64,000 bases of DNA from an uncultured Candidatus Saccharibacteria bacterium (GCA_964480345.1 CAYZNW010000003.1:45493-109492), one strand, 5' to 3'; positions 32,554 to 55,823 are shown, counted from the stretch's first letter. Numbers and translations: made by a program. Notes: generated by a model not told the origin, from the letters alone.

Positions 32554-34365
32554 ATGGCTATTGGTACATCTCTGCTTAAGTATTTGCAGTCTCAAAATTT
32601 AATTAGTGAGGATGATGCAAGGAAGGTCCTCTTGGAGAGAAGTAGATCGCAAAAAAGCGAAGAAGCTATTATTCGTGATTTAAATGTTGTTCCTGACATA
32701 GATATAGCGAAAGCTAAATCGGCAATATTTGGTATTCCTTTCATTGATATCTCTACTATGAATATTAATGAAAGTATCATAGCGGAAGTTCCAATCGACA
32801 ACTTAAATAAATACAAAGCTGTCCCATTTGAACGAGGTCAAGATTATGTAAAGATTGCTATGGAGGATCCTTTTGATATCCAAGCAACTCAGGTACTTGG
32901 TACAAAATATCCAAAAGGGACAAAGATAGAAGTATATATTACTACTGGAGATGCAGTTAGGAATATTTTAGACAGAAGGGTTGGTGATATGATGTCTTCC
33001 GAAGTAAGTGATGCGTTGGAAGACGCCGACGTTGGAGGCACAGTTACAGATATTACTGAAGATCCAAATCTGTTTGGAAGTACCAATATTTCAGCTGCAC
33101 CTGTTGCTAGAATTGTTAACTCAATTTTGCAGTATGCAGTTACCTCTAAGGCTTCTGATGTGCATGTTGAGCCTATGGAGAAGAAAGTGCGAGTCAGATT
33201 TAGAATTAACGGTGTAATGACAGAAAGATTATCTCTTCCAAAAAGTCTGAATGCAGCAGTTGTTTCTAGGATCAAAATTCTTTCAAATCTAAAAATTGAT
33301 GAAAGAAGAGTGCCACAGGATGGTCGTTTTCAGATTAAAGTTGCTAATACTAAAGTAGACTTAAGAATCTCTGTAATGCCAACTATTCATGGGGAGAAAG
33401 TAGTAATGAGGTTGCTAGAATCTGAAAACAACGATATTACTCTTGAGAGTACAGGTATTCGAGGAAATGCTTACAAAATTTTTGTAGATGCTCTTTCTGT
33501 TACAAACGGTATTGTTCTTGTTACTGGTCCTACAGGTAGTGGTAAAACAAGAACATTAGCTTGCTCATTGATTAAAGTAAATGATCCCACAGTAAATATC
33601 ATTTCATTGGAAAATCCTGTTGAGATTAGAATTCCTGGCGTAACTCAGGTACAGATAAACCCTGATGTAGGGCTTACATTTGCATATGGTCTACGATCTG
33701 TTTTACGACAAGACCCTGATATCGTAATGGTTGGAGAGATTCGAGACGAGGAAACAGCACAACTCGCTGTTCAAGCATCTCTTACTGGTCACCTAGTATT
33801 ATCTACTCTACACACGAACAGTGCAGCAGCAGCTATACCAAGACTTATGGATATGGGAATAGAACCGTATTTACTTGCTTCAACTATACGAGCTGTAGCA
33901 GGTCAAAGACTTCCTCGTACTATTTGCAAGGAGTGTATAGAAGCGTACCCTGCTACTCAAGAAGTCATAGAAAATATTAAGGAAGTGATGCAAGGAGCAG
34001 GCAACTTTGATTTAGTCACATATATTAACAGAGTGTTAGCATCTAGAAATATTGAAGGTTCTAAAGTTAGCCCTGCTATGAAAGCACCTGAAACAGGTCC
34101 TGATGGAAATGAGATAATATATCTGTATAAAGGGAAAGGTTGTGATAAGTGTGGAGGTTCGGGATATGCTGGGCGAACAGGTATATTTGAAGTTTTAGAT
34201 GTAACAGAAAATATTAGCAGAATGATTATGGAAAATGTTACCGCAGATGATATTGAGAAAGTAGCTATGAATCAAGGTATGATTACAATGATTCAAGATG
34301 GTTATCTAAAGGCATTAGAAGGTATTACTACCCTAGAAGAGGTTCTAAGGGTTTCAAAAGAATAA
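32554..34365 (+). CDS. pilB: type IV pilus assembly ATPase PilB (GspE family)
   Basis: Walker A 'VTGPTGSGKT'; tetracysteine 'CKEC...CDKCGGSG'; N-terminal T2SSE_N-like domain. Confidence 0.9.
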   Translation: MAIGTSLLKYLQSQNLISEDDARKVLLERSRSQKSEEAIIRDLNVVPDIDIAKAKSAIFGIPFIDISTMNINESIIAEVPIDNLNKYKAVPFERGQDYVKIAMEDPFDIQATQVLGTKYPKGTKIEVYITTGDAVRNILDRRVGDMMSSEVSDALEDADVGGTVTDITEDPNLFGSTNISAAPVARIVNSILQYAVTSKASDVHVEPMEKKVRVRFRINGVMTERLSLPKSLNAAVVSRIKILSNLKIDERRVPQDGRFQIKVANTKVDLRISVMPTIHGEKVVMRLLESENNDITLESTGIRGNAYKIFVDALSVTNGIVLVTGPTGSGKTRTLACSLIKVNDPTVNIISLENPVEIRIPGVTQVQINPDVGLTFAYGLRSVLRQDPDIVMVGEIRDEETAQLAVQASLTGHLVLSTLHTNSAAAAIPRLMDMGIEPYLLASTIRAVAGQRLPRTICKECIEAYPATQEVIENIKEVMQGAGNFDLVTYINRVLASRNIEGSKVSPAMKAPETGPDGNEIIYLYKGKGCDKCGGSGYAGRTGIFEVLDVTENISRMIMENVTADDIEKVAMNQGMITMIQDGYLKALEGITTLEEVLRVSKE

Positions 34366-34388
34366 ATTTTTGGTATAACTAAATAGAT

Positions 34389-36002
34389 ATGGAAGACACT
34401 GCCCAAAATACAATACAAAATAATGTGCCAGTACAGCCAGTAGCTCCTACTCCAGTTGTGAATAGTACGGTTACCTCTACTGCACCTCAGACTCCTGCTC
34501 CACAGCAAGTAGAAAGCAAAGGTGTAGAAGAAAGCCAAGATGAAAGACTAGCACAGTTAAGACAAAGTTTAAATGATTTACTAGATAATGAGAGTACAGC
34601 ACCACAGCAAAATGCTGCCCCTACTCCTCCTGTCGTTGAACAAAGTGTACCAGTACAACAATATTCGCAAACAGTAAATCCTCTTCCTGGTATTCAGACA
34701 AGTGTGAATAATGAAGAGAAAGATCTTTCAGAAGCAGTAAATTCTGTTACTGATGATATACCATCATCAACTCCACAACCTACAATTGCTCCTGATACGC
34801 CACTCAAAGAGGTAATCCCAGATGAGATTAAACCGAAAGCTATGATTAGAGATCCTAAGCCAAATAACCTTGCGACTCCTGTTGTATCTCCGGCTGACAG
34901 TGATGAGACAATATCTGGCAGCAATACTACTACAAACGCCAATTTAACAATAGAGAAACTTCTTGCTGAGGCTATAAATCGAAGTGCTTCAGACTTACAT
35001 ATATCAGTTGGATATCCACCAATCCTAAGACTAGATGGTGTTCTTGTTGATATGGAAGAGAAAGTCCTTGCTCCTGAAGATGTTGAGCAACTCATCTTCT
35101 CTGTATTAAGTGATGAGAAGAAAGAGCTACTTGAAGTTAATAGAGAGATAGATTTCGCCTATTTGTTTAATGGATCCGTCACTGCTCGATTTAGAGTAAA
35201 TGCATACTACTCTATGAAAAATCTCTCCGCAGCATTTAGACTAATTCCTTCAAGAGTACGAACAATAGAAGAGCTTATGCTTCCATCTATATACCACCAA
35301 TTAACCAAATTAAAACAGGGATTAGTTTTAGTCACAGGTCCAACAGGACACGGTAAAAGTACTACACTTGCTGCTATGCTTGAAGATATTAATAGAACAA
35401 GATTTAGCCATATTGTAACCATAGAAGATCCAGTAGAGTATGTATTTGAAGGAAAGAAAGCATTGATTGACCAAAGAGAAATGAACGATGATACTCTCTC
35501 TTGGAATATAGCACTGCGAAGCGCACTGCGACAAGATCCTGATGTTATTCTTGTAGGAGAAATGAGAGATTACGAAACAATTGCAGCAGCAATTACTCTT
35601 GCTGAAACAGGACATTTAGTATTTGCGACCTTACACACTAACAGTGCTGCTCAAACAGTAGATAGAATCATTGATGTATTCCCAGAAAACCAACAGCAAC
35701 AAATTCGAGCTCAAATAGCTAACACTTTAGAAGCAGTTGTAGCACAAAGATTAGTACCTCTTGATAAAGGAGGAAGAAGAGCAGTATCAGAAATCATGCT
35801 TAACAACTCTGCTATTGCAAACCTTATTCGTGAAGGTAAAACTCATCAAATAGATAATGTCATTAGAACAAGCTCTGATGTTGGTATGGTATATCTAGAG
35901 AAAGCTCTTGTAGGACTTGTACGAGAAGGAGTCATATCTGTACAGAAAGCACAAGAGTATGCAGTTCACCCAGAAGAAGTTTTAAGATTATTAAAAAATT
36001 AA
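34389..36002 (+). CDS. pilT: type IV pilus retraction ATPase PilT with a ~190-aa Pro/Gln/Thr-rich N-terminal extension
   Basis: 'LVTGPTGHGKSTT', 'GEMRDYETI', 'TGHLVFATLHTNSAAQTVDRI'. Confidence 0.85.
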   Translation: MEDTAQNTIQNNVPVQPVAPTPVVNSTVTSTAPQTPAPQQVESKGVEESQDERLAQLRQSLNDLLDNESTAPQQNAAPTPPVVEQSVPVQQYSQTVNPLPGIQTSVNNEEKDLSEAVNSVTDDIPSSTPQPTIAPDTPLKEVIPDEIKPKAMIRDPKPNNLATPVVSPADSDETISGSNTTTNANLTIEKLLAEAINRSASDLHISVGYPPILRLDGVLVDMEEKVLAPEDVEQLIFSVLSDEKKELLEVNREIDFAYLFNGSVTARFRVNAYYSMKNLSAAFRLIPSRVRTIEELMLPSIYHQLTKLKQGLVLVTGPTGHGKSTTLAAMLEDINRTRFSHIVTIEDPVEYVFEGKKALIDQREMNDDTLSWNIALRSALRQDPDVILVGEMRDYETIAAAITLAETGHLVFATLHTNSAAQTVDRIIDVFPENQQQQIRAQIANTLEAVVAQRLVPLDKGGRRAVSEIMLNNSAIANLIREGKTHQIDNVIRTSSDVGMVYLEKALVGLVREGVISVQKAQEYAVHPEEVLRLLKN

Positions 36003-36005
36003 TAA

Positions 36006-37217
36006 ATGAAGAAATTTAAATACTCAGCAAGAGATAACAGAGGACAAGTGATAGAAGGTGAATTAGAGGCAAAAGATATTGAATCAGTATCAGATATTTT
36101 GCATGACAAAGGATTAGTAACTGTCTCTGTCAAGGAAGGCTCAGGATTTGATTTACAGAAACTAAATGAGATAAATATTGGTGGTGTTCCGATGAAAGAT
36201 AAGGTGGTCTTCATGAGACAGATGTCAACAATGGTTGGTGCTGGTCTACCACTTACTAGAGCATTAGAGATTATGGTTCAACAAGCAAGTAATCCCAAAT
36301 TTAGAAAAGTATTACAAAGTGTTTTGCAATCTGTTGAGTCAGGTAAAACATTAGCGAACTCATTTAGAGAGCAGGAAGAGGTATTTGATAATATTACTGT
36401 TAATCTAATAGAAGCAGGAGAAGAAAGTGGTAACTTAGAAGTTATTTTAGAGAAGCTAGCTACTGAGCTTGAAGAAAGCCAATCTTTATCAAACAAAATT
36501 AGATCAGCGATGATATACCCAGCAATCATTCTTCTGGTTATCATAGGTGTAATCTTAATGATGATGTTTGTCTTAGTCCCATCTATGGCAGAGATATACA
36601 AAGATTTCGATGCAGAACTACCATGGACGACAAGATTCCTTATGAGTATGAGCTCCTTTTTCTTGAACTACTGGTGGGCTATATTAATAGTGATAATCTC
36701 ATTAGCATTAGGTATCAAATACTATCTTGGAACTGAAGCAGGAAGAGCTAACTTTGATAGATTGATATTAAAGGTTCCTGTTGTAGGTCCTATTATTTCT
36801 AAAATACAGCTTTCTCAATTTACTAGAATCTTAGCCTTACTATTAGGTAGTGGATTATCCATTATTAAGGCATTGGAATTAACAGCACAATCATTAAGTA
36901 ACTCAGAATATAGAGGTACAGTTTTAACAGCAAGAGATGAAGTCGAAAAGGGAGGAACATTGGCTCTCCCTATTGCTAGGAGTCCACACTTCCCTCTTCT
37001 AGTAAGTAGTATGATTTCAGTTGGAGAGGAAACAGGAGAGATAGATAATGTATTGAACAAAGTATCTGAATACTACAAAGAAGAGGTAGATACTGCAACA
37101 TCTAACATGTCTACGATTTTAGAGCCTCTGTTCTTAATTATCATGGGCTTAGCAATCGGATTTATTGCTCTAGCAGTGTACATGCCTATGTTCCAATTAT
37201 CCTCTGCTATTGGATAA
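36006..37217 (+). CDS. pilC: type IV pilus platform protein PilC (GspF family)
   Basis: Two GspF repeats; three TM segments. Confidence 0.9.
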   Translation: MKKFKYSARDNRGQVIEGELEAKDIESVSDILHDKGLVTVSVKEGSGFDLQKLNEINIGGVPMKDKVVFMRQMSTMVGAGLPLTRALEIMVQQASNPKFRKVLQSVLQSVESGKTLANSFREQEEVFDNITVNLIEAGEESGNLEVILEKLATELEESQSLSNKIRSAMIYPAIILLVIIGVILMMMFVLVPSMAEIYKDFDAELPWTTRFLMSMSSFFLNYWWAILIVIISLALGIKYYLGTEAGRANFDRLILKVPVVGPIISKIQLSQFTRILALLLGSGLSIIKALELTAQSLSNSEYRGTVLTARDEVEKGGTLALPIARSPHFPLLVSSMISVGEETGEIDNVLNKVSEYYKEEVDTATSNMSTILEPLFLIIMGLAIGFIALAVYMPMFQLSSAIG

Positions 37218-37288
37218 TTCATTGCTTGACATATCAATCAAAGTTCTGTAATTTATAAGTAATTAATTTGTTACTGTCTCTATTATTT

Positions 37289-37858
37289 ATGAAGAAGACT
37301 TCATACAAGGCATTCACATTGATTGAAATGCTTATCGTTATGGGTATCATTATCATTCTTATGGTAGTTGGTATAAGTGCGGCTAGGTTCGCTATTAACA
37401 GGGCAAATGATATTGCTCATCAAAATGCTGTTACTCAGATATTCCAAGCTTTAATGGCTTACTACACAGATAATAGACAGTATCCAGTTGCTCAAAATGT
37501 TCAGACATTGATAGGTACACCAGGAAATACCTCAGCTCCATTAAATAAATATATGAACGAGGGTTCATTTAAGGGTGGTACTCCAGCAAGTTATATATAT
37601 ATGGTAGATGATATACATCAGTCAGTTGCGGTTTGTGTTACATTAGGTGGTGTTAATGATGAAGCAGATAGGGGAATCTTCTGTGATGGTAATGCATTTG
37701 GAAGCCCTGAGCTAGAAACCCCAGTACAAGGTCCTTCCTTCACAAAGAAAGGAACTCTTGACTCTGAAGTGGATGAGCAAGTTTACGGGCTATTAAAAGG
37801 TTATACAGATGGTACATCTAACTGGTATGGAGATTCTACTGGTTGGACACAGAACTAA
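37289..37858 (+). CDS. type IV pilin (putative major pilin), prepilin leader MKKTSYKA|FTLIEML
   Basis: Class III signal with Glu+5 and a hydrophobic N-terminal helix; the ORF track starts at an upstream TTG (37268). Confidence 0.8.
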   Translation: MKKTSYKAFTLIEMLIVMGIIIILMVVGISAARFAINRANDIAHQNAVTQIFQALMAYYTDNRQYPVAQNVQTLIGTPGNTSAPLNKYMNEGSFKGGTPASYIYMVDDIHQSVAVCVTLGGVNDEADRGIFCDGNAFGSPELETPVQGPSFTKKGTLDSEVDEQVYGLLKGYTDGTSNWYGDSTGWTQN

Positions 37859-37883
37859 TAGCATGAGTGCTTAGTTGAAAATG

Positions 37884-37913
37884 AACCCCTCTTTTTAGAG
37901 GGGTTTTTCTTTT
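37884..37913 (+). terminator. rho-independent terminator
   Basis: CCCCTCT-TTTTAG-AGGGG followed by TTTTTCTTTT. Confidence 0.8.
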
Positions 37914-37935
37914 ATGTATATGATAATATATTCTC

Positions 37936-38697
37936 ATGTTTGTAATATATAGTTCTATATTTTTTCTAGGTGCATCTCTTGCCAGTTTTATTAATGCTAC
38001 TCTGTATAGGATTGATAACAAGAAAGAGTTTAAGAATAATTGGAGGACAATAGCCAGAAGAAACTCTTACTGTGAGAACTGTAAAAAAGAGCTTAATTGG
38101 ATAGAGCTATTCCCTATTGTTGGTTATTTAATATATGGAGGTAAATGTTCTAAATGTAGAAAATCTATAAATATCTATTATCCAATCTCTGAGTTTATAT
38201 TGGGAGTTTCTACTCTACTCTTCTATTTAAACAGTGTTCCTTTTTATCTTTATATAATTCTGATTTTTCTGTTTATACTTTCCTACTATGATTATATATA
38301 TAAAGCGGTACCGAAGAGTTTAGTTCATGTGTTTTTAGGTATATCGATTTTGTTTTTTATTGTTTTTAATTTCAGTTTAATTACTTTGGTAATAGTTCTA
38401 TCTTTAGCTATATCTCTATTGATTCTATCTGCTTTAATGAAAAAATCTTTTGGATTAGGAGATGTTTTAATATTAATAGGGCTTGGTATTGTAATGTCTT
38501 ACAAAAGCTTTTTAGTTATGTTTTGGATTGGAATATTACTAGCCCTACTCTGTTCTATAGTTTATTCTATATTGAAAAAAAGAGATTTGAGGAAGATAAA
38601 GATTCCTATGATTCCATTTTTTACGATTTCATTTCTGATTACGTGTATATATGGGTTACATATATATGATTTACTAACTAACTGGTTATCTACTTAG
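37936..38697 (+). CDS. pilD: prepilin peptidase (A24 family, PilD)
   Basis: N-terminal Zn ribbon 'CENC...CSKC'; polytopic; 'GLGDVLILIGLG' catalytic Asp region. Confidence 0.8.
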   Translation: MFVIYSSIFFLGASLASFINATLYRIDNKKEFKNNWRTIARRNSYCENCKKELNWIELFPIVGYLIYGGKCSKCRKSINIYYPISEFILGVSTLLFYLNSVPFYLYIILIFLFILSYYDYIYKAVPKSLVHVFLGISILFFIVFNFSLITLVIVLSLAISLLILSALMKKSFGLGDVLILIGLGIVMSYKSFLVMFWIGILLALLCSIVYSILKKRDLRKIKIPMIPFFTISFLITCIYGLHIYDLLTNWLST

Positions 38698-41600
38698 CCC
38701 ACCAGAACGGTTGTTTTACTCCACTATTAAACCATTTACCGTGTCTCATAATCTGGTTCATTGTAGGTCCATCTACTGTATAGTCTAACTGTACTTGATT
38801 AATTATTGGAGATACATCTGTATCTGTGCTTGTTAATGTTGCTTTGTACTGGAAGAATCTGTAGCTACTTCCTAGAGTTATTAGTTCTGGAGATACGGTT
38901 GGTAGATACTCTTCACTTGTTATGTTATCTATCCATATATTTCTTCCTCCGTATGTATTGTCTACTCTCATTGTTAGAAGGTTGGCTCTATCTAAATGGG
39001 TGTCTAATGTTCTTCCTTTGATTGGTAAATACTCTTTCTGCCATTTAAATACATTTGCTTTGGTAGTAAAGCCACCTGTTGGGAATGTAGATATACTCTC
39101 CCAATTTCTAACTGTGATAGCTCCTGTGTCTTTGTTTACACTTGTTACTACTCCCTGTGCTATGTACTCTCCACTACTGTTTTGTTCTCTTACTATGATC
39201 TTCTCTCCTGTATATATGTTACTTCCTTTGCTCTTCATTCCTTTTACTGTTCCATCTATTGTAAAGGAGGTATCAGAGGATGATGTTATGAGGTTAGAGC
39301 TATCTAATCCTGCTCCAAACTCTATTTCAATGTTATGTGTTCTTAATCCTACTTCATATGCTTGTCTTATTTCATCTGCACTTCTTGCTATGTTGGAGAT
39401 TCTAACTTCGTCTATTTCTCCATTAAACATTTCGACATAATTAGTAAATCCAATATATGGTAAATTAGAATACCCACTCAATCTTAAATTATATGTTGTG
39501 ACAGGAGAACCGTATGCTGTTGAGTTTGATGCTTTGAGTTCACCATTTAGATATATCTTTAAACCAGAAGAGTCTCCTGTAGCTACTACATGATACCATT
39601 TGTTGAGTTCTACAAGGTTAATTGGAGTTAATAACACATTAGTTCCTCCTCTATCCAGAAATTCTAAAGCACCTGTTGTATTTAATCTGATACGGTACCC
39701 AGAGTTATCACCTTTGTTTATAAAATTAGCAACATCATTAAACTCCTTTGGTTTTATCCACGCCTCTAGGGTGATAGCAGATGGATTTAATGAGGTTGAA
39801 TCAGGTATGACAATATAATCTGAGGTACCATTGAAGTTCCTAGCTCCTCCTATTCGACCGTTATTGGTATATGTAGTTCCTATTGACATTCCGTTGTTAT
39901 TGTATCCTGAACTATCTTTGATATATGCTCCATTCCCATCTATTTCATCTAAGTGCCATAGACCTACTGTATTTGCATCTGGTTGATAGTTTGCATATGC
40001 ACTCTCTCCTACTGTTGTAGATATGTTCTCTCCTACTTTATCACTAGCTATATATACAGGGAGAGAAATTTTTGATGATAGATTCTGTGTTGGTAATAGA
40101 TAATTTGAATATATTGATTTAGGTGAAGAGTTACGATCTACACCTTGAGTGTATTCAGCTAATATTTCGGATGCTGATAAAGCTCTATTGTATATTTTAA
40201 CTTCATCTATTAATCCATTGAATCCTGCTTCTCCAGGTATTTGCTTACTAATATTTAACTCTGTATTAGTTAAATTAACAGTGACCGCATATGTACTAAC
40301 TGCACTTGTAGAGACCTGAGCTCCATTTTTGTAGCAATATATATTAGTACCATCGTAGGAAAAAGTGACATGATTCCATTGAGAAATATCAAGATAAATA
40401 AAACATTGGGCTCCATTCCATATACCCGCAGATATATTACCATCGACATTGTACACTAAATGAATATTACTTGGTTCATACCCTCCAAGGCCAAGAATCC
40501 ATTGTCTCATGGTTGGTGAAGCGTATGGCTTAAGCCATAAATCTACTGTATGTACTTTATCTCCTGTTCCTAATCCACTATTTGGAACTGTTATATAATC
40601 ATTAGTTCCATTAAAACTTCTGCTTTTTCCTACTCGCCCATCTACTATTGTTGTTCCGGTAGCAGTACCTACCCTATCTCCTACCTTATCTGCAACTGTA
40701 GTGCCTGATAGCTCATCCATATCCCAATAGGAGATTAATCCTGTATTCTTTTTTTCAAAGATTGTTTTTAGAGAAGAGTATTCTTCAAAAATCTCTTGAG
40801 TGGAAAGTGTACGATTATATATTTTTGGTTCGTCTAATTGTCCGTTGAAAAACCCCGCTGATGCTATATTTGATCCTAGATAGGTATCTTTATCAGGTCC
40901 TAATGTAAATGTAGATGCAAATTCATTTTCAAGTACACCATCTATATATAATCGAGTCTTAGTTCCATCATTTGTTCCTGTTATTAAATGCCAATTACCA
41001 TCATTTATAGAGGATTTGCTTTCATGGGTAGCTGAGTTGTTACCAGATGTGTTATCAAAATCTATTAACACTTTACCAGTTGAAGAAAATGCGTTTATAT
41101 ATAGGAATAGTCCTCTTGATTGGAATAACATTGAATTTGATGTTGTAGTAGTTTTTACCCAAATACTAGCACTCATAGAAGTGAAAGAAGAAAAATCTAT
41201 TAATGGGACTTGTACATAATCGCTAGTCCCATTGAAGCTTCTACTATTATTTGCCTTACCTTGTGCTATTGTAGTTCCTGTAGCAGTTCCGTTATATGTA
41301 CCTACACTATCTTTAACTACACTTCCACTATTCTCATCCATCTTCCAATATGATACTAATCCATCATTTACAGTAGTCCCTATTCTATTTGATTTATATG
41401 GAAGTTCTTGATTATATAACCTCTCTATTTCATCAGATGTTTTAGCTGCGTTGTATATACGTACATCATCAACAATACCATTAAAACCTTTCCACCTATT
41501 AATGATAATATCGCCACTTGCTTGTCTTATTCCCATGTTACTATATGGTATGCTACTAACTTCTTTCCCATTAACATATAATCTAATAACACTATTTGGA

Positions 41601-44600
41601 CTATCTATTACTCCTACAACATGATACCAAGAATCCTCAGCTATTATCCCCACAGGGCTATTAAGTACAGTACTAGCTACTCCTATGTTATCTACCGATG
41701 TTGATATAAAGCTAATATATTTACCAACTGTATTTATTACTAACATGTATTGTCTATCGGAGCAATTTGTCTCACTACAATCAGCTGCTCCTGTATTTTT
41801 ATTTATCAAATCCATCCAAGTACCACTAAGCGTAGAGGTTTTGAACCATGTTGCTACTGAGAGTTGACTACCACTACCATTAATATCTAAATCTGGAGTA
41901 TTTGGTAATGTTATGTAATCAGTACTTCCATTAAAACTCCTAGCTTTATCATACTTACCATCTACTATTGTTGTTCCTGTTGCACTACCATTACTACTCC
42001 CTACGCTGTCTTTTACTTCGCTACCACTTAATTCATCCATCTTCCAATGAGATACTAAACTATCATCTAATGTACTAGTATTATCTGCAGTCATATTACT
42101 ACTACTTTGTGTAAGAGTAGATCTTTTCTCTATACCTTCTAAATAGTCTGATTGAATTCTATCTGCTGCAAGAGCTTTATTGTATAATTTTACTTCGTCG
42201 ATTATACCTGACAGGGTTCCATTAGGATATGTGTTATCACCCGCTATGAACAAATCTCCACTTCCCTGCCTAATTCCACTACTGCTATATGCTGTAGAAG
42301 CCATTAGTGCTCCATTAAGATAGATACGCATATATCCGTTAGTGCTATCAATTGTACCAACAATATGATACCAAGTGTTTGGATTTATATATCCCCATCC
42401 AACATCTGTTTGTCCTACTCCTATGTTATCTACTGCCGTTGAAGAGAAAACTAAAGTACCACTCTGATTAAGAAACATAGCATATTGCCTATTCACTCCA
42501 CTGTCTGGATTTGTATCAGCCTTATAAAGTAGTGTATGCCAATTCCTTTGTGACATATCAGAAATATTCATCCAGAAACTAACAGTAATTTTACTACCAG
42601 CTCCATTAATATCTAAAGAGCTACTGTTTGGTATTCTTACAACACCAGTATTTCCATTGAAGCTTCTAGCTTTTGCATATTTTCCATCTACTATCCCTGT
42701 TCCAGTAGCTGTACCGTTATTACCTGTTCCTGATATATCACTGACAGTTGTTCCACTCTCTTCATTCATACTCCAATACCCAACTAATCCATCTTCTTTA
42801 TTATTGTATAAGCTACTATTATCAAAAGATCTTAATGTACTCTTTGCTGTATTTTCTTTCCACTCACTCCATGTACCATCATTAGGGTTGTTACTATTTC
42901 CACCTCTAATATGAAATCTAGTATTTCCCGAGTTATAGTTTGAAAGAACTTCTGAGGAAGTAAGAGATCTACTGTAGATTCGAACAGAATCCATCAATCC
43001 TTTATAGTTATTCCCTCCTGCATTTGTAAGCCTTCCCATCTCTAAATTTGTACTGTTAGAAACACTATTTATAGGTCCTGCATTTATCACATCTGCTAGT
43101 CGACCATCAAGATATAATGATAATATTGTAGAGGATTTTGTGGCTACCACATGATGCCATTGATCGTCTACAACAATAAAGTTTGAAGAGCCAATATTTT
43201 TTGTTCCTCCGCTATCGTGAACTTCAAACAATATCTTTCCTTTAGGTTCACCATTAATAGAGATAACACTTAAATTGTAACCAATTCTAGTTGGAGAAAA
43301 AACTTGTTTACTAATTAATGTCGGAAAGGATTCTGCAATAGCATAATCTGCTTTGAACCATACTTCCAAACTAAAGTCTCCTGTACTAAAATCACCTACT
43401 GTACTGTTAGATGCTGTTACATAATCATCAACTCCATCAAACATTAATCCTCCACCTCCCCATCTCCTGTTGTTGTATGTCCAACCACTACCTATAACCT
43501 TATCTTGTCCTGTCGTATCAGAAAAATTAGTTAGAGTTCCATTACAACCACTACCACAACTACCTCCACTACTTGCTACTGTTCCACTACTCTCATTGAA
43601 ATTCCACTGAGCTACTAAGCCAGTAGTGCTATACGGTACCTCCCCATCTCCTGTATTTATACCTGATACAGTAGAAGATACATTTACTTTTGATACACTT
43701 GATCCTGAATCAAATACTGTAGATTCATACTCTCCTGAATATCTCTCTTTACCATACAAATATGTCTTATATATCTCATCTGCACTTCTAGCTATATTGG
43801 ATAAACGTACCTCATCTACTAACCCATTAAAGCCTACTTCGCTCCCTGGTCCTTTACCAATATTTAACTCTGTATTAGCTAAATTGACAGGAACTCCAAC
43901 AGTAGGAGCATTACTAGATACCTGTACTCCATTCTTATAGCAATACATATTAGTTCCGTTGTAGGTGAAAGCTATATGATTCCACTGAGAAATATCAAGG
44001 CGAATAGGACATTGTGAACCACTCCATATACCAGCATAAATATTCCCATCAGTACCATATATGAGATGTATATTACCTTGGTCATATCCTCCCATCACAA
44101 GAAGCCATTGTCTTATTGTTGGTAGAGTATATGGTTTAATCCATAAATCTATTGTATGTGTCTTATCTCCTGTTCCTAATCCACTATTTGGAACTGTTAT
44201 ATAATCATTCTCTCCATCAAATTCGTATCCTTTCCCTATCTTCCCATCTACACCAATTGGTGATATATCTAACAACTTAATTGATGTGAAAAAAGTAACT
44301 TCAGCTACAATAATATTATTAGTTGTAGGAGTGAAATTAACCCAAGTAGCATTGTTATTATATTGCCAACTACTTCCACTATATTTAACAGCAACAAAAT
44401 GATTACTGTTATTTGCTTCTAATCCAGTTATACCTTGAGCTGAAAGAGATGGAGAATACATGATATATCCACTACCTGCTTCAGCATCTGTAACAGCTAT
44501 TCCAGAGTTGATAGTAGGAGTGATTATCCTAATCCCATTCCGATCTATAAAATAGCAATTAGCATCACCATATGTACACTCAATATCTATCTCTCCAGCA

Positions 44601-46678
44601 TTATCAACTCCTCCATAACGATTTAATTTAAAAGTAAGATTAGAGCTTTGTATGCCATAGCTCATACCATTTAAAGAAGTTGCAATATGGTTATTATTAG
44701 TAGAACTGTCGGCTGCTGGTGTTAATGCTGGTATTCTGTATCTAACAATAACTATTCCCGATCCACCGTTTCCGCCTGCAAGGTATGCTCCTGTAAATGA
44801 ACCCCCACCCCCTCCTCCACCTGTATTCGCTATACCATTAGTACCTGCACCATTTAGAACTCCACTTCCTCCACCTCCATTTCCACCAGTACCAACATAA
44901 GAGCCATTAACTTCTCCACCACCTCCACCTCCTGCATATACAACTGCAGTTCCTGTAATATCGCTAACTCTTCCAGCACCACCATTACCTGATCCTGAAC
45001 TGTTTCCTCCGTCTGCTCCCACACCACCTGCACCTCCACCTCCTCCATTTGTTCCTACCCATCCTGAAACTATGTATCCAGCACCTCCGTTATATCCTTG
45101 GGAACCAATTCCTCCTGTTGATAAAGGAGCGGATACAACAACAGCACCACCACCACCACTACCTCCACTTCCACCTGCAAGTTGCCCATGAGTTATTCCG
45201 GCACCCCCTCCTTCAGCAATCAGAGATGAGAAGGCCGAATCTTGTCCTTTATTACCATTATATGCACCTCCGTCTGCTCCTCCATTACCTCCATTCCCTA
45301 CAGTGACTGCAATATTCCCTTTAGATACAGTAAAAGAAGATTGCTCTACAAAACCTCCTGCTCCTCCTCCAGAACCAGTATTTGCACCACCCCCTCCTCC
45401 TCCTATAACTAACACATCCACTTTCCCATCTGTATGTGCTGTAAAAGTTCCACTAGAAGTAAAAGTATGAATCACATAATCACCAACCCTTGTTACTGTT
45501 CCACCACTTGCTGAAAAATATGGAAGATCTCCAAAACTCCAATGCCCCACAGTATTAGAATCCACAACAGGCTTCTCCACACCTAATAACTCTACCCCAC
45601 TCACACTAGATACATAATCTGAACTTATATATGTACCACTATCAAAATCTACCTTACTGTTATGAACAATACTAGGATCTATTCTAATTGGAAAAACCCT
45701 ATCATTCGAATACAACCAATCGGAATCTAAAACTAACCTTATCTCATACCTACCTCCATCAATATGACTAATATTAAACTCCACATCATACGTCTTACTA
45801 TTAACTCCATCCACTGCAAAACTAGGAAGAAAATGACTAACATAATTACCATACCTATCCTCAAAATAGTAAACCTCCCTACTACCCTCACCTACATTAA
45901 ACCAACCCTTCTTTAACATTAACCCTTCTTCAACACTCAAATCAAAAACATACTCATTAGCAGGTAGAGAACAATCCTGTACATCCTCACAATCTTTAAT
46001 ATATGAATCTAAATTACGAATAATTATCTCCTCCTTAAGACCTATTCCCTCTATGATCTGATACTCTAAATCTATACCTTTTGATATTTCCTTATTTACT
46101 ACTGTCTTCTTAGTAATACTATCTTTCTCTTCTTCTCCAAACACTCTTCCCAAATCAACTAATTCTGTATTACTCTTAATATCTCTGTTACCCATTATCT
46201 CTGATACCTCTTTCAACTTCTCTTCATCTTTATCATTTAATTTCTCTAAATCGCTAACCTTAACCCCCTTTATTGACATCTCTATACCGTAGCTTTTAAT
46301 AGGTCTGAAGAAATTCTTAACCTTATCCCAAAACCCTCTTGTATTTTCTTCAAAAGGATTCCTCTTACTAATATCTGATTCAAACCTAACCCACTGAACA
46401 TCAGGTTGATCTCTTTTACCAAAATCTACTGAAAATTTAGGATTCTTGTTCCCATAAATAGTATGACTATTTGTACTTTGCAAAAATATATCAGAGTTAG
46501 GTTTTACACTACTAATATAGTAGATGAGGAATGACAGAAGAATAGCTATTCCAATAACAATACCAAATATAAATGATTTCTTACCTTTTAAGTTCTTCCA
46601 ATTAAATCTTCTTTTACTGTTGTTGAGATGTTTTAGGACAGATTTCATCATCATAAATATTAACATAGTAGAATACAT
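38690..46678 (-). CDS. giant (2662 aa) membrane-anchored surface protein with a Gly-rich segment and at least 8 LamG/Concanavalin-A-like lectin modules
   Basis: It has an N-terminal TM helix and a ~220-aa GGxGG-rich region. Units of 'W.MDE.SG...NG.ATG......GK...SFNG..DY' ending 'DEVRIYN.ALS..EI' recur throughout. Confidence 0.8.
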   Translation of the reverse strand: MYSTMLIFMMMKSVLKHLNNSKRRFNWKNLKGKKSFIFGIVIGIAILLSFLIYYISSVKPNSDIFLQSTNSHTIYGNKNPKFSVDFGKRDQPDVQWVRFESDISKRNPFEENTRGFWDKVKNFFRPIKSYGIEMSIKGVKVSDLEKLNDKDEEKLKEVSEIMGNRDIKSNTELVDLGRVFGEEEKDSITKKTVVNKEISKGIDLEYQIIEGIGLKEEIIIRNLDSYIKDCEDVQDCSLPANEYVFDLSVEEGLMLKKGWFNVGEGSREVYYFEDRYGNYVSHFLPSFAVDGVNSKTYDVEFNISHIDGGRYEIRLVLDSDWLYSNDRVFPIRIDPSIVHNSKVDFDSGTYISSDYVSSVSGVELLGVEKPVVDSNTVGHWSFGDLPYFSASGGTVTRVGDYVIHTFTSSGTFTAHTDGKVDVLVIGGGGGGANTGSGGGAGGFVEQSSFTVSKGNIAVTVGNGGNGGADGGAYNGNKGQDSAFSSLIAEGGGAGITHGQLAGGSGGSGGGGAVVVSAPLSTGGIGSQGYNGGAGYIVSGWVGTNGGGGGAGGVGADGGNSSGSGNGGAGRVSDITGTAVVYAGGGGGGEVNGSYVGTGGNGGGGSGVLNGAGTNGIANTGGGGGGGSFTGAYLAGGNGGSGIVIVRYRIPALTPAADSSTNNNHIATSLNGMSYGIQSSNLTFKLNRYGGVDNAGEIDIECTYGDANCYFIDRNGIRIITPTINSGIAVTDAEAGSGYIMYSPSLSAQGITGLEANNSNHFVAVKYSGSSWQYNNNATWVNFTPTTNNIIVAEVTFFTSIKLLDISPIGVDGKIGKGYEFDGENDYITVPNSGLGTGDKTHTIDLWIKPYTLPTIRQWLLVMGGYDQGNIHLIYGTDGNIYAGIWSGSQCPIRLDISQWNHIAFTYNGTNMYCYKNGVQVSSNAPTVGVPVNLANTELNIGKGPGSEVGFNGLVDEVRLSNIARSADEIYKTYLYGKERYSGEYESTVFDSGSSVSKVNVSSTVSGINTGDGEVPYSTTGLVAQWNFNESSGTVASSGGSCGSGCNGTLTNFSDTTGQDKVIGSGWTYNNRRWGGGGLMFDGVDDYVTASNSTVGDFSTGDFSLEVWFKADYAIAESFPTLISKQVFSPTRIGYNLSVISINGEPKGKILFEVHDSGGTKNIGSSNFIVVDDQWHHVVATKSSTILSLYLDGRLADVINAGPINSVSNSTNLEMGRLTNAGGNNYKGLMDSVRIYSRSLTSSEVLSNYNSGNTRFHIRGGNSNNPNDGTWSEWKENTAKSTLRSFDNSSLYNNKEDGLVGYWSMNEESGTTVSDISGTGNNGTATGTGIVDGKYAKARSFNGNTGVVRIPNSSSLDINGAGSKITVSFWMNISDMSQRNWHTLLYKADTNPDSGVNRQYAMFLNQSGTLVFSSTAVDNIGVGQTDVGWGYINPNTWYHIVGTIDSTNGYMRIYLNGALMASTAYSSSGIRQGSGDLFIAGDNTYPNGTLSGIIDEVKLYNKALAADRIQSDYLEGIEKRSTLTQSSSNMTADNTSTLDDSLVSHWKMDELSGSEVKDSVGSSNGSATGTTIVDGKYDKARSFNGSTDYITLPNTPDLDINGSGSQLSVATWFKTSTLSGTWMDLINKNTGAADCSETNCSDRQYMLVINTVGKYISFISTSVDNIGVASTVLNSPVGIIAEDSWYHVVGVIDSPNSVIRLYVNGKEVSSIPYSNMGIRQASGDIIINRWKGFNGIVDDVRIYNAAKTSDEIERLYNQELPYKSNRIGTTVNDGLVSYWKMDENSGSVVKDSVGTYNGTATGTTIAQGKANNSRSFNGTSDYVQVPLIDFSSFTSMSASIWVKTTTTSNSMLFQSRGLFLYINAFSSTGKVLIDFDNTSGNNSATHESKSSINDGNWHLITGTNDGTKTRLYIDGVLENEFASTFTLGPDKDTYLGSNIASAGFFNGQLDEPKIYNRTLSTQEIFEEYSSLKTIFEKKNTGLISYWDMDELSGTTVADKVGDRVGTATGTTIVDGRVGKSRSFNGTNDYITVPNSGLGTGDKVHTVDLWLKPYASPTMRQWILGLGGYEPSNIHLVYNVDGNISAGIWNGAQCFIYLDISQWNHVTFSYDGTNIYCYKNGAQVSTSAVSTYAVTVNLTNTELNISKQIPGEAGFNGLIDEVKIYNRALSASEILAEYTQGVDRNSSPKSIYSNYLLPTQNLSSKISLPVYIASDKVGENISTTVGESAYANYQPDANTVGLWHLDEIDGNGAYIKDSSGYNNNGMSIGTTYTNNGRIGGARNFNGTSDYIVIPDSTSLNPSAITLEAWIKPKEFNDVANFINKGDNSGYRIRLNTTGALEFLDRGGTNVLLTPINLVELNKWYHVVATGDSSGLKIYLNGELKASNSTAYGSPVTTYNLRLSGYSNLPYIGFTNYVEMFNGEIDEVRISNIARSADEIRQAYEVGLRTHNIEIEFGAGLDSSNLITSSSDTSFTIDGTVKGMKSKGSNIYTGEKIIVREQNSSGEYIAQGVVTSVNKDTGAITVRNWESISTFPTGGFTTKANVFKWQKEYLPIKGRTLDTHLDRANLLTMRVDNTYGGRNIWIDNITSEEYLPTVSPELITLGSSYRFFQYKATLTSTDTDVSPIINQVQLDYTVDGPTMNQIMRHGKWFNSGVKQPFWWAK
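40250..40630. repeat. intragenic DNA repeat, copy 2 (paralogous to 43850-44230)
   Basis: About 70 nt is near-identical (40551-40618 vs 44151-44215) within ~380 nt of 75-95% similarity. It encodes duplicated LamG modules. Confidence 0.6.
43850..44230. repeat. intragenic DNA repeat, copy 1
   Basis: See copy 2. Confidence 0.6.
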
Positions 46679-46742: not shown

Positions 46743-47510
46743 ATGAAAACTGCCAAAAAACACATATACTCTTACAGAGGAAAATATGAAGGATACACCC
46801 TAATAGAAATGCTAGTAGTAATGGCCATATTCGTCATCTTCGTAGCTATGTCTTTCTCTTCTTTCAGTGGATTACAGAATACAATTAAGATGAACGAGTA
46901 CTCATTAACGCTGGAACAAAATATTACCAATGTACAAAGAGCATCTATGTTGTTGGAGAAGAAAGCAGATGACAATTGGCTATACGGATTAGGAATAGAT
47001 CTAACTAAATTAAACCTAGAGGGTCATTACGATACATTTAAATGGTGTTCTCCTTTTACAGATTATGGAGATGTAACAACTAAATCATATATACCTTCTT
47101 TTAATCCAGCTCTAGATCTAGAATCTAGCTTAAACTTTGGCAAGAATGGATATATTCCTATCCCTACAGAAGCATCATATGCAGAAGGAACTTGCAAAAA
47201 TAGTACTTTATCCTCCATTGTTAGTTTAGTGGGATACAAAACAAGTTTAACTCCTCCAAAAGGTAAAATAACCACAAACAGCAATCCATTTAACAATAGA
47301 CCACTAAAATATCTTGTATTTGAGTCTGTTTCTGGAAGAGCATTCTTCTATGATGAAACAGGGAGAGTTGTCAATTACGATGCTAAAGGAAGACCCGTAA
47401 CAGGTCAACCTATCAACTTAGTTATTACCATAGATCCTGATACAAATATACCAATTAAGGAGATAGTTGTTGAGAATCTCTCTGGTCGTATATCAACTAT
47501 AAAGAAATAG
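46743..47510 (+). CDS. minor type IV pilin / pseudopilin
   Basis: Prepilin motif 'G|YTLIEMLVVMAIFVI'. Confidence 0.7.
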   Translation: MKTAKKHIYSYRGKYEGYTLIEMLVVMAIFVIFVAMSFSSFSGLQNTIKMNEYSLTLEQNITNVQRASMLLEKKADDNWLYGLGIDLTKLNLEGHYDTFKWCSPFTDYGDVTTKSYIPSFNPALDLESSLNFGKNGYIPIPTEASYAEGTCKNSTLSSIVSLVGYKTSLTPPKGKITTNSNPFNNRPLKYLVFESVSGRAFFYDETGRVVNYDAKGRPVTGQPINLVITIDPDTNIPIKEIVVENLSGRISTIKK

Positions 47511-47514
47511 TTTT

Positions 47515-48069
47515 ATGAAAATGAAAATAGAGACAAGTAAATATGAAGCAATGGGATTTGTTGAAGCTCTTGTAGCTATCATGGTAGTTGGTATATCAGC
47601 TGTAGTTCTAATGGAGATAGCTGCTAACACAATGCAAAATATGATACAGAATGAAAGAGTTGATCAAGTTACTCAGTACGCTGTAGAGGGGGCTGTAATG
47701 GCTCAGGTAATAGCTAGTAAAAACAAAGAAGCTGGAGGAGGGCTGTTTCCTACTGAGACAGGAGTAGAAAGATGTTATGCTATGGAGAAACTTCCTGATG
47801 GTGGATATGGGTTTGTAAAAGATGGAGAAAATGGATTTATAAGATTTTTAAATACTGACAGAAACCTATACAAAGAACAGGCTACTGTATACGATGAGAA
47901 AGGAGAAAAAACTGAATACTTTAGAATACTGTGTATTAACTTCCCTGCAGAATCAGATTACTCCTTCTTAATTGGACGAGTAGTTGTTGGACAAAGCACC
48001 TCTTCTGGAACTATAAGCAAGGGGAATCAGGTTAAAGATTACTCATATTATACCTCTATAAAATTGTAG
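47515..48069 (+). CDS. minor type IV pilin / pseudopilin
   Basis: 'G|FVEALVAIMVVGI'. Confidence 0.65.
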   Translation: MKMKIETSKYEAMGFVEALVAIMVVGISAVVLMEIAANTMQNMIQNERVDQVTQYAVEGAVMAQVIASKNKEAGGGLFPTETGVERCYAMEKLPDGGYGFVKDGENGFIRFLNTDRNLYKEQATVYDEKGEKTEYFRILCINFPAESDYSFLIGRVVVGQSTSSGTISKGNQVKDYSYYTSIKL

Positions 48070-48071
48070 AT

Positions 48072-48782
48072 ATGAAAGAAACAAATATTGAAGAACAAAA
48101 ATATGAAGCATTTAGTTTAGTAGAAATGTTATTAACTATTGTCATCATTGGGTTTGTAATGCTCATATCTGCTGTTACATTAACTACTTTAATTAAAGTC
48201 TCTACAGTCTCTAGTAATAAAACTAGAGTAAGAAATGAATCAGAGTATATATTGGAGTTAATTCGAAAAACAGTAAGAAACTCTAATCCATCAGATGTAT
48301 TTATTTTTAATTCACAAAATGCAAGAGTGTATGCGAGAAACAGTACTACTAATTCGATTACTATAGAAAGTACTGGAAGAGAAGATTTGAAAGCACTTTA
48401 CTCCTCACCTCTTGGAGAAAACGAGGTAGGGAATGAAATTCATTTTAGACCGTACGGCTACAATAGTTGGGTTTGTATAGGATTTTTCAAAGATAGGGAT
48501 TCGGAGAAAGGATATATAGTTAAAACAAATGTGGAAGATTTACTTAATAATCATGATTCATGTTTCCAAAGTGCACCTGGCAAATTCTTGATATCTTTAA
48601 ACTCAGACTATGTATCTGTGGATACTTTCTCTATAGCATATTCTAAAAGTTCAGATAACAATTATCTAATTCGTTTTGATATAGAAGCACAACCAGTTTT
48701 CTGGTATTTTGCTACTGGCGCTCCAGTTAGTAGGAAAGTTTTAAGACAGACAGTTGTGAAGACTGAAGGTTTGATATGGTAG
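48072..48782 (+). CDS. minor type IV pilin / pseudopilin
   Basis: 'A|FSLVEMLLTIVIIG'. Confidence 0.65.
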   Translation: MKETNIEEQKYEAFSLVEMLLTIVIIGFVMLISAVTLTTLIKVSTVSSNKTRVRNESEYILELIRKTVRNSNPSDVFIFNSQNARVYARNSTTNSITIESTGREDLKALYSSPLGENEVGNEIHFRPYGYNSWVCIGFFKDRDSEKGYIVKTNVEDLLNNHDSCFQSAPGKFLISLNSDYVSVDTFSIAYSKSSDNNYLIRFDIEAQPVFWYFATGAPVSRKVLRQTVVKTEGLIW

Positions 48783-48809
48783 TTACTATATGTTATCTTT
48801 ACTGTATAT

Positions 48810-49760
48810 ATGAATAACTGCTCTAAAAATCACCAAAACTTTCATGGATATTCTGCGCAGGCTATAGTAATAGCGTTGGTGGTCATAGTTGTCTCAGTTA
48901 TTATTGGTATGTCAGTAATATCGAGATCTTTGCGAGATAAAAAATCTGCAAATACTGAAAGATACTCCACTGAAGCTTTAGAGATCTCAGATTCAGTCAT
49001 AGATATCTTTTCTACTGTTGATACACAAACTCTGTTTGATAATATCGAATATGAAGATGCTAAGTTGAAGCGATTTAATGGTATAGCACAGCTTCAAGAG
49101 TATTTAAAAAGAATAGGAATAGAGAGTGATATATCCTCTCTATTTAAAAATTGTAGCGATAGCAATTCTGGAATAGTAGTATCTATGGATAAGGTAGATT
49201 CTGAAGAATTAGAATTGTTGGAATCAAACACATTTGGATATAGGCTTAATCCTTTGCAAGTGGCACAACAGTGTACTCTTTCTATTACTGCAGAACCTAG
49301 AGCAGCCTCTTCTGTTGGATTAATACTGCACAAGATATATGGAAAAGGATATCCTTCAGCTATAGAGTACAAGCGATATGATTTTGATGATGTAATAGCT
49401 TATTGTGTGTCTGAAGATACTACTTCATGTAAGAACAACTCTTTAGCAGATGGAGCTTGGAATATCTGGAACAAGGCAACTCCTATGAAAATAAATCTGA
49501 AAGAGGAGAAAGATGGTTTCGCTCTTGATGAAGTGAGAATCACTGCTATTGGGGGAGCATTAGGAATAGAGAACTCATTGAGTGTTGCAGGATGTGCAGG
49601 TGATATGGACTTAAAGATGGCAAAACTTACTGTAATGACTACATGTAATGGAGAATCAAGAGGTAAAGAGGTGTTAATACCAAGTCCTAATAATTTAAGT
49701 TACTCTACCCTCTTTGATTATGTCTTTTACAATAATCAAGGTTTTTTTCAACCATATTAA
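48810..49760 (+). CDS. large minor pilin lacking Glu+5 (GspK/PilX-like tip pseudopilin candidate)
   Basis: It has 'G|YSAQAIVIALVVIV' with Gln at +5. It is the largest of the quartet (316 aa). Confidence 0.5.
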   Translation: MNNCSKNHQNFHGYSAQAIVIALVVIVVSVIIGMSVISRSLRDKKSANTERYSTEALEISDSVIDIFSTVDTQTLFDNIEYEDAKLKRFNGIAQLQEYLKRIGIESDISSLFKNCSDSNSGIVVSMDKVDSEELELLESNTFGYRLNPLQVAQQCTLSITAEPRAASSVGLILHKIYGKGYPSAIEYKRYDFDDVIAYCVSEDTTSCKNNSLADGAWNIWNKATPMKINLKEEKDGFALDEVRITAIGGALGIENSLSVAGCAGDMDLKMAKLTVMTTCNGESRGKEVLIPSPNNLSYSTLFDYVFYNNQGFFQPY

Positions 49761-49778
49761 TTTATTTATTAAAAATTT

Positions 49779-50177
49779 ATGGATAATTCAAACAAAACAA
49801 TATTAATCATAGAAGATGAGCAAGATCTTTTAGATTCATATAAAGAGCTAATCAGTATGGGGGGATATTCGGTAGCTACCTCCATAGATGGATATCACGG
49901 TCTTGATTACTTAGCTACAAATATTGGTCATGTAGATCTGGTTCTTTTAGATCTGATGATGCCTGGTGTAGATGGTCTAGAAGTATTACGAGCCATTAAA
50001 GCTGATAAGGATAAGTATGGTGATATGCCAATCATCGTTTTAACAAATATGTCTAGTGAACTAGTCATAAAAGAAGCTTTTGATCTAGGGGCATCTTCAT
50101 ACTTGGTTAAATCAGACTTAGATTATGATGGTTTACTTAAGGAGCTTAATAAATATTTAGGAAGCAGTGATAAATAA
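49779..50177 (+). CDS. single-domain CheY-like response regulator receiver (PilH-like)
   Basis: 'ILIIEDE', 'LVLLDLMMPGVDG', 'YLVKS'. Confidence 0.8.
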   Translation: MDNSNKTILIIEDEQDLLDSYKELISMGGYSVATSIDGYHGLDYLATNIGHVDLVLLDLMMPGVDGLEVLRAIKADKDKYGDMPIIVLTNMSSELVIKEAFDLGASSYLVKSDLDYDGLLKELNKYLGSSDK

Positions 50178-55820: not shown

Positions 55821-55823
55821 GAC

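Follow-up and report, generated by a model that had tools for sequence, protein, structure and literature searches.

Introduction

The Periscope proteins (SasG, Rib/alpha C, Sgo_0707 and CdrA) carry tandem arrays of repeats that are highly identical in DNA, and the number of repeats varies between close strains (Whelan et al. 2021, PMC8201768). Here we describe a giant gene in a 64,000-nucleotide (nt) stretch of DNA from an uncultured bacterium (GCA_964480345.1, CAYZNW010000003.1:45493-109492; the whole stretch is referred to below as the window). The gene occupies 38690..46678 on the minus strand as one very long open reading frame (ORF) and encodes a protein of 2662 amino acids (aa) with seven LamG modules (M1-M7), two of which, M1 and M6, share a DNA repeat. 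A preliminary description of the sequence had proposed that this repeat is a substrate for recombination, such that module number could expand or contract and the adhesin could be length-variable, an idea that corresponds, by analogy, to the Periscope proteins. As in those proteins, a large bacterial protein, here presumed to be at the surface, is built of repeated folded domains, and intragenic recombination alters the number of repeats, as in the family members P0031 and P0275 discussed below. Unlike in the Periscope arrays, adjacent modules here are only 20-46% identical in aa, and the only similar pair, M1 and M6, is non-adjacent, with four modules between its members and 77% nt identity. 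The modules are moreover of lectin type and, by analogy, probably binding, unlike a passive Periscope stalk. Strain-level variation in repeat number was not seen for this gene, which stands alone in its cluster at 90% identity; one family allele pair, 99% identical, does differ by three modules.

In a second group of systems, which includes Neisseria pilE/pilS, Mycoplasma genitalium MgpB/MgPar, Borrelia vlsE and Treponema tprK, variable segments lying within conserved sequence are replaced by non-reciprocal recombination, giving rise to mosaic surface proteins. The giant gene resembles these systems in that its variable blocks are bounded by conserved sequence and form a mosaic between alleles, both against its nearest homolog, P0002, and in slots 1 and 6 of the array, where M1 and M6 reside. 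It differs from them in that tblastn and blastn searches found no silent donor cassettes in the window, in that the exchanged unit would be the core of a whole domain (~130 aa) within a seven-slot array, and in that the donors would apparently be other slots or paralogous full-length genes. We found no evidence in the giant gene for frequent or programmed switching of the pilE/pilS kind.

A third comparison is with binding modules of similar fold. In those passages of PMC12911398 that concern them, ConA-like lectin/LamG surface proteins of Patescibacteria are listed only as putative attachment factors, attachment being the role generally assumed; they share with the giant protein the PF13385 family, the phylum-level lineage and the presumed part in attaching an episymbiont to its host. 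Phage tail fibres and lectins of the clostridial neurotoxin HcN type have binding modules swapped on a conserved scaffold. Here the match is one of predicted fold: the model of M6 resembles the HcN/NTNH lectin-like jelly-roll and the carbohydrate-binding domain of arabinanase AbnA, at a sequence identity of 13-26%. Unlike HcN toxins, phage fibres and AbnA, the giant gene has no toxin, phage or glycosidase context.

In the following we argue that the repeat is quite probably the footprint of ectopic gene conversion in which LamG cores were replaced in the manner of cassettes.

Two non-adjacent modules share a core

Comparison of the gene with itself, by blastn and by a repeat finder run on the window DNA (all positions are numbered from the first letter of the window), returned one dominant off-diagonal match, between 43790-44221 and 40181-40615 (76% identity over 438 nt, E=1e-86), with all further self-matches within the gene being far weaker. 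The repeat finder resolved the same pair into two segments, one of 300 nt (79%) and one of 37 nt (92%). The copies are spaced by 3606 nt, or 1202 codons, with the frame kept; one 3-nt indel occurs further downstream. The longest exact run between them comprises 47 nt (44163..44209 and 40557..40603, minus strand) and occurs exactly twice in the window, where no match was expected in shuffled sequence (100 shuffles) even with 3 mismatches allowed. This block covers codons N824-K839 of M1, NDYITVPNSGLGTGDK, and codons 2026-2041 of M6, and it lies at the 5' junction of the replaced core described below. The preliminary description was thus correct that a repeat pair lies 3.6 kb apart within the giant gene, that its copies are duplicated LamG modules (modules 1 and 6 of the seven), and that the two peptide strings it quoted are found in both copies. 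Its ~70 nt of almost perfect identity, placed at 44151-44215 and 40551-40618, are indeed highly similar but fall short of that wording: the first interval pairs with 40545-40609, about 6 nt away from the partner given, and the two agree at 58 of 65 positions (89%; 69 of 77 over a slightly wider span), 47 nt being exact.

At the protein level, M1 (43736..44251, minus strand, aa 810-981; aa 805-983 in the HMM-based delimitation) and M6 (40127..40645, minus strand, aa 2012-2184; aa 2003-2186 in the HMM-based delimitation) are 65% identical, as compared with 20-46% for every other module pair (M3 versus M4, 46%). The similarity is restricted to the core of the modules, which is 70% identical in aa and 77% in nt, versus 50% aa at the 5' edge and 46% aa at the 3' edge. 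These cores, designated type X, extend over 43814..44209 in M1 (minus strand; aa 824-955) and over 40205..40603 in M6 (minus strand; aa 2026-2158). In the structural model of M6, the replaced part corresponds to residues ~47-172 and makes up most of the beta-sandwich, whereas four short strands at its start, and the final strand with the helix after it, are retained.

The shared core appears foreign to both slots

Comparison with relatives places sharp boundaries around the type-X cores. At slot 1, the flanks are 71-94% identical in aa to the two closest homologs, and the core is 19-24% identical to any ortholog core, the slot-1 cores of the orthologs being 48-84% alike among themselves. The protein matches P0002, L003 and P0003-6 closely up to F-D-G-x-N-D-Y-I, and the match resumes at D-E-V-R-[IL]-S-N-I-A-R-S-A-D-E-I. 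At slot 6, the flanks are 66-79% identical to those of positional orthologs, the core only 13-23%, and at least four unrelated core types occupy this slot among the relatives. Measured against L003, L011 and L001, nonsynonymous divergence (dN) is 0.85-0.97 in the replaced cores and 0.11-0.21 in the flanks, where synonymous divergence (dS) is 0.85-1.2. Because the flanks match positional orthologs at 66-94% and the cores at only 13-24%, these alignments indicate that both cores were replaced in this lineage by type X, a core foreign to slots 1 and 6. The edge strands, the linkers and the C-terminal domain appear to have stayed orthologous.

A similar pattern runs through the entire array. Sliding identity against P0002 yields a periodic mosaic, in which the scaffold (edges, linkers and C-terminus) is 90-100% identical, several of its blocks reaching only 70-83%, and every core is 17-57% identical. 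The core of M5 is 73% identical to that of L003 and 66-68% to those of P0003, P0004 and P0006, yet 36% to that of P0002. Such discordant sharing of core types among relatives indicates that cores are likely to have been exchanged from a common pool and not altered by fast point divergence. Similar module pairs inside one protein are recurrent in the family, with 14 of 895 pairs at least 55% identical and some up to 93%. Slots 1 and 6 are occupied by matching core types both in the window protein (X, 69%) and in P0002-P0006 (Y, 46-54%), a regularity that is unexplained.

Two further arrays show a different arrangement of modules. In L001 (ORF aa 449-866) and L003 (ORF aa 1022-1443), a complete LamG module appears to be nested inside another, with positions 1-51/53 of the module hidden Markov model (HMM) lying before the insertion and positions 56/96-190 after it, at approximately the same site as the 5' breakpoint of the replaced cores.

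An old pair with an apparently younger 5' segment

We searched for relatives of the two cores in 426 fetched proteins, including the best 150 of an exhaustive search over 1.84 billion representatives, in which M1 as a query retrieved 52,432 LamG relatives. Within this set no protein has a module nearer to M1 than M6, or nearer to M6 than M1, and the next best match is 46% identical. Since they are mutual closest relatives, copying between slots 1 and 6 would be the most economical origin of the pair.

The M1 and M6 cores differ by a dS of 0.65-0.70 and a dN of ~0.20 (omega ~0.3). This dS is ~0.2-0.5 below the divergence between the flanks of the window protein and those of L003, which belongs to the SBF912 lineage; a lineage-specific event is thereby weakly supported, because the dS values are near saturation. 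Synonymous divergence is unevenly spread along the core: codons 824-860 (37 codons) have a dS of 0.21, as against 0.95 for the 95 codons that follow (861-955). For the run of 15 identical codons that forms the 47-nt block, permuting same-codon labels over identical residues yields p=0.0025, and p=0.013 was obtained with Fisher's test. Overall, the same codon is used at a fraction 0.68 of the identical M1/M6 residues, as compared with a codon-usage expectation of 0.50 and with 0.37-0.61 in other module pairs. Chance and codon bias were considered as sources of the 47-nt block and ruled out by the excess in same-codon use (0.68 versus 0.50) together with the permutation result. The data suggest, with moderate strength because they come from one sequence pair, that the 5' junction of the core was converted again at a later time over a shorter tract.

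Module number changes in the family, with no change seen at M1 and M6

If the M1/M6 repeats were active substrates for RecA-type recombination at present, deletion or duplication of the 3606-nt interval would be appreciably frequent, and the adhesin would vary in length between cells or strains. The perfect 47-nt block, which is in frame, is in line with this explanation, as is the documentation of the same mechanism within the family. P0031 (1845 aa, 5 modules) and P0275 (2626 aa, 8 modules) come from the same locus in two metagenomes and are 99.1-99.7% identical in DNA. They differ in length by exactly 2343 nt. Two non-adjacent modules form a direct repeat of 595 nt and 93% identity with exactly this spacing, and the copy at the junction is a single-switch hybrid. 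From these sequences, unequal recombination between similar non-adjacent modules appears to be a real source of change in module number in this family, and the difference may also reflect a tandem duplication collapsed by short-read assembly.

The M1/M6 pair compares poorly with this proven case. The repeat of P0031 and P0275 contains a perfect run of 287 nt, six times the 47 nt of M1/M6, at 93% identity, whereas M1 and M6 are 77% identical outside the block and their dS shows that the copies have long coexisted. Relatives do differ in module number: the window protein, P0002-5 and L003 have 7 modules, P0006 has 6, and L001, the syntenic ortholog, has 9. But these differences map to the M3-M5 zone, between link 2-3 and link 6-7, away from the M1/M6 pair. 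Six other clusters at 90% identity contain several full-length proteins each, whose lengths vary by no more than ~60 residues, which is under one module, leaving the P0031/P0275 cluster as the only one that differs by whole modules; P0004 is identical in two samples. No variant of the giant gene was found in the databases, where its own 90% cluster is single-membered and the nearest PilC is 87% identical. Breaks of Logan assemblies in the giant gene (see below) are compatible with heterogeneity, but a paralog with a near-identical scaffold would explain them equally well.

We therefore regard an ongoing length switch as doubtful, and the repeat makes better sense as an outcome of recombination than as a switch in present use. 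Judging from its divergence (77% nt identity, dS ~0.65-0.7), the pair is old and would now be a poor recombination substrate. The earlier proposals are thus supported in part. Recombination between M1 and M6 in the past gains support from the mutual closeness of the cores and from the low-dS 5' part, and expansion and contraction of module number holds for the family (P0031/P0275; 6, 7 or 9 modules). A length-variable adhesin arising through M1 and M6 finds no such support, since these modules are not the site of change and no database entry lacks or duplicates the interval between them.

Alternative sources of the pair

Type-X cores are also present in other giant proteins, at 39-46% identity (P0007, P0025, P0047, P0055, P0075 and P0303); in P0007 there are two copies, arranged in tandem and 75% alike. 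The two cores of the window protein could accordingly have been gained independently, from two related external donors in a paralogous giant gene or another bacterium. A second conserved locus of the family lies next to comEA/comEC, and the divergence of M1 from M6 (30% aa) is large relative to the scaffold divergence from P0002 (0-10%). However, the two cores are 64-70% alike mutually, and no external module exceeding 46% identity to either was found among the 426 fetched proteins, the best 150 representatives included. The low-dS 5' tract with its 47-nt block would in any case need direct exchange between the copies, and we consider independent acquisition unlikely. Searches for a source elsewhere were likewise negative: tblastn and blastn of the modules detected no further copy in the window outside the giant gene, viral contigs contained only relatives of type-X cores at 37% or less, with no sign of a phage donor, and scans of genomes and metagenomes yielded no relative above 64-72% in any segment.

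The possibility of an assembly artefact is tied to P0002. The N-terminal half of this protein resembles L003, which is situated at the second conserved locus (giant gene, PPIase, comEA, comEC), and no genome in the database is close enough to explain the 98% identity of its C-terminus, as the nearest PilC is 87% identical. For these reasons we suspect that P0002 is a second-locus paralog from the same genome. In addition, independent Logan assemblies of the same population (SRR15237811 and SRR15237809) are broken at either end of the giant gene. Contig L098 ends at ~38723, having entered the gene from its 3' end by ~30 nt, and L099 starts at ~45692 (aa ~329), such that the protein from aa ~330 to the C-terminus is left unassembled. 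These breaks fit either a shared repeat or heterogeneity and bring with them a modest risk of mis-phased cores.

In the extreme case, the giant gene would be a chimera of two paralogs with near-identical scaffolds, and the type-X cores would not belong to one gene. This would be in keeping with the 90-100% identical scaffold blocks of P0002 next to cores that all differ, with the probable origin of P0002 in the same genome and with the ends of the Logan contigs. Against this, the ORF is unbroken over 7989 nt on a 111-kb contig, several scaffold blocks are just 70-83% identical to P0002 and would give an assembler anchors, and the repeat copies have diverged too far for a collapse. The two cores would remain a real intragenomic pair even in the event of mis-phasing. 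A chimeric gene is in our view improbable.

Diversity-generating retroelements (DGRs) are common in Candidate Phyla Radiation (CPR) bacteria and target lectin-like folds. A DGR or other programmed hypermutation, suggested by two similar repeats lying a few kb apart, has next to no chance of being the explanation here, and a template/variable repeat pair is effectively refuted, because the mismatch spectrum is symmetric with all bases involved (A-site changes 48/146 in one direction and 50/146 in the other) and no reverse transcriptase was detected among ORFs of at least 150 aa scanned with Pfam at 16.5-64 kb of the window (reaching ~22 kb upstream of the giant gene and ~17 kb downstream), and both copies are in addition coding modules at 77% identity, not above 90%.

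Organization of the giant protein

The giant protein, of which an identical entry exists in NCBI (P0001), consists of a predicted N-terminal membrane anchor, an N-terminal domain, a Gly_rich_2 domain, the seven LamG modules and a conserved C-terminal domain. The LamG modules match Pfam Laminin_G_3 (PF13385) in 7 stretches, with 540.9 bits against a cut-off of 27.6, and were delimited with an HMM of our own. On the minus strand, the modules other than M1 and M6 map to 42905..43501 (M2, aa 1060-1258), 42116..42718 (M3, aa 1321-1521), 41384..41992 (M4, aa 1563-1765), 40748..41293 (M5, aa 1796-1977) and 39326..39895 (M7, aa 2262-2451). The C-terminal domain (38693..39325, minus strand; aa 2452-2662) has no Pfam family and is 98% identical to that of P0002 and 83-85% to those of L001, L003 and L011.

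A hydrophobic segment at 46511..46579 (minus strand; aa ~34-56), the sole strongly hydrophobic one in the protein by a Kyte-Doolittle scan, is the predicted N-terminal membrane anchor or signal; no C-terminal anchor motif was found. A surface location is presumed, and the protein is probably a host-cell adhesin. It was also considered as a type IV pilin or minor pilin and rejected, as it has no N_methyl (PF07963) match and its N-terminus does not show the G-F-T-L-x-E pattern; neighbouring ORFs, unlike the giant protein, do carry N_methyl. An AlphaFold2 model of aa 1985-2200 (M6) is a beta-sandwich of 14 strands (pLDDT 82.4, pTM 0.79), and Foldseek comparison with the PDB returned lectin-like HcN/NTNH domains and AbnA domain 4 (E 4e-11, TM 0.65-0.68), predicting a ConA-like/LamG lectin-type jelly-roll fold for this module.

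The glycine-rich domain (Gly_rich_2, PF21722; 44735..45460, minus strand; aa 407-648) contains 38% Gly and scores 80.1 bits against a cut-off of 24.3. The closest homologs, P0002-P0006, lack this domain, which is an insertion, and its nearest relatives (59-69%) are found in the otherwise different giant proteins P0058 and P0029. Its DNA has a strongly negative GC skew and, at 44805-45407, many short repeats of GGN codons (families D4, D5, D9 and D10). An ORF of 172 aa on the plus strand (38922-39440) falls wholly inside the giant gene and is most likely spurious.

A giant gene within a type IV pilus cluster

Homologs and neighbouring genes place the organism in Candidatus Dojkabacteria (WS6; CPR/Patescibacteria). 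The giant gene sits inside a type IV pilus cluster annotated with Pfam, on the strand opposite to the pilus genes. At its 3' end (32554..38697, plus strand) are genes for a PilB-like ATPase, a second T2SSE ATPase, PilC, a pilin and a prepilin peptidase, the last of which ends at 38697 and converges on the stop of the giant gene (38690) with an 8-nt overlap. At its 5' end (46743..55153, plus strand) are pilin-like (N_methyl) genes, ORFs without assigned function and PilM, in synteny with L005 and L012. Over 46743-56546, three pilin-like ORFs and PilM are followed by two short coiled-coil ORFs, and the pilus cluster looks complete.

The same arrangement is found in the Dojkabacteria metagenome-assembled genome (MAG) SBF912SR1HQ0033 (loci L001 and L005). 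Its neighbouring genes are mostly 75-95% identical in aa to those of the window (range 37-95%), among them GyrB at 95% and PilB and PilM at 92% each; the lowest are the prepilin peptidase at 61% and one ORF without assigned function at 37%. The pilus genes on the 3' side (32554..38697) are syntenic at 61-92%, and the giant protein and its syntenic ortholog are only ~45% identical. In that MAG the syntenic giant gene is split across two contig ends (L005/L001) and, at nt ~1336-1408 of L001, carries a frameshift from frame 0 to frame 1, due to a sequencing error or a real disruption.

Within the cluster, a gene for a 132-aa response-regulator receiver is located at ~49779-50177 (from L099 4112-4510), between ORFs of 316 aa and 493 aa; it is shorter than the 150-aa threshold applied to ORFs of the window. 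Regions 16521-20141 and 50177-54077 hold three large ORFs without a Pfam family: one of 1206 aa, which starts with TTG, and two of 493 aa and 810 aa. Between the 493-aa ORF and its syntenic counterpart identity is only 37%, as compared with 78-92% for the neighbours, and this ORF represents another fast-evolving gene of the pilus cluster. Rfam and tRNA scans of the window gave no matches.

The second home of giant LamG paralogs comprises the giant gene followed by genes for a cyclophilin peptidyl-prolyl isomerase (PPIase), ComEA, ComEC, a metallo-beta-lactamase and arginyl-tRNA synthetase (ArgRS). It was seen at L003 276-11305, at L010 6001-16381, and at L102 and L103, in three different genomes or metagenomes, and both giant-gene loci are linked to pilus or DNA-uptake machinery. 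A few kb downstream of the second-locus giant gene, the Dojkabacteria MAG locus L003 encodes a RuBisCO large-subunit homolog of 456 aa (13772-15142), consistent with the form II/III RuBisCO known in CPR.

Discussion

Our results suggest the following model for the origin of the repeat by exchange of LamG cores. A membrane-anchored giant surface protein would display seven lectin modules, their conserved scaffold being made up of edge strands, linkers and the C-terminal domain, and in this lineage the central cores of M1 and M6 (~130 residues each) would have been overwritten with one identical foreign core type. In the simplest order of events, one slot gained the new core, which was then presumably copied into the other. 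Breakpoints would fall in motifs common to all modules, F-[ND]-G-x-x-D-Y-I on the 5' side and F-N-G-L-[VI]-D-E-V on the 3' side, with these conserved motifs possibly serving as recombination anchors. Divergence would then have brought the two copies to 77% nt identity, except that the initial ~110 nt of the core, holding the 47-nt block, were apparently re-homogenised later. The family would evolve in two ways, by core exchange between conserved scaffolds and by occasional unequal crossing-over that alters module number. Recombination between M1 and M6 would still be possible, producing an in-frame deletion or duplication of 1202 codons.

Several points weigh against this model. No donor cassette was found in the 64-kb window, in viral contigs or in protein databases, and the copying may have run from M1 to M6 or in the reverse direction. 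P0002 was compared as protein only, a level at which strong purifying selection on the scaffold is inseparable from recent recombination. If P0002 is a same-genome paralog with a near-identical scaffold, a short-read assembler could mis-phase cores, and the Logan assemblies break at both ends of the gene. Finally, the dS heterogeneity concerns one pair of 132 codons, in segments chosen post hoc.

A broader proposal, which we offer only tentatively, is that Dojkabacteria maintain a multi-slot lectin display. Giant proteins at two conserved loci, in the pilus cluster and beside comEA/comEC, would share a near-identical scaffold on which ligand-binding LamG cores are swapped as cassettes between slots and paralogs; slots 1 and 6 would form a matched pair, and the array would be resized by unequal recombination between similar cores.

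The repeat is real, yet it is an old, diverged pair that gives no evidence of a length switch, and in itself we rate it as ordinary biology for a modular surface protein. What would be new relative to known systems, and moderately interesting, is that a CPR gene of the pilus cluster exchanges its lectin cores in the manner of cassettes while the scaffold is conserved. Genes of this kind are prone to assembly breaks and possibly to mis-phasing in short-read MAGs, and module counts need long-read confirmation.

CPR/Patescibacteria live attached to host cells, and how hosts are recognised is largely unknown. The giant lectin array of the pilus cluster is a strong candidate for a determinant of host specificity, because between relatives its cores are only 13-57% identical while its scaffold is 66-100% and the neighbouring genes mostly 75-95% identical. 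The clean boundaries between core and scaffold define units that can be tested for binding. If the multi-slot display holds true, it would represent recombination-driven variation in host range or attachment in episymbiotic CPR bacteria, operating without silent cassettes, invertases or retroelements.

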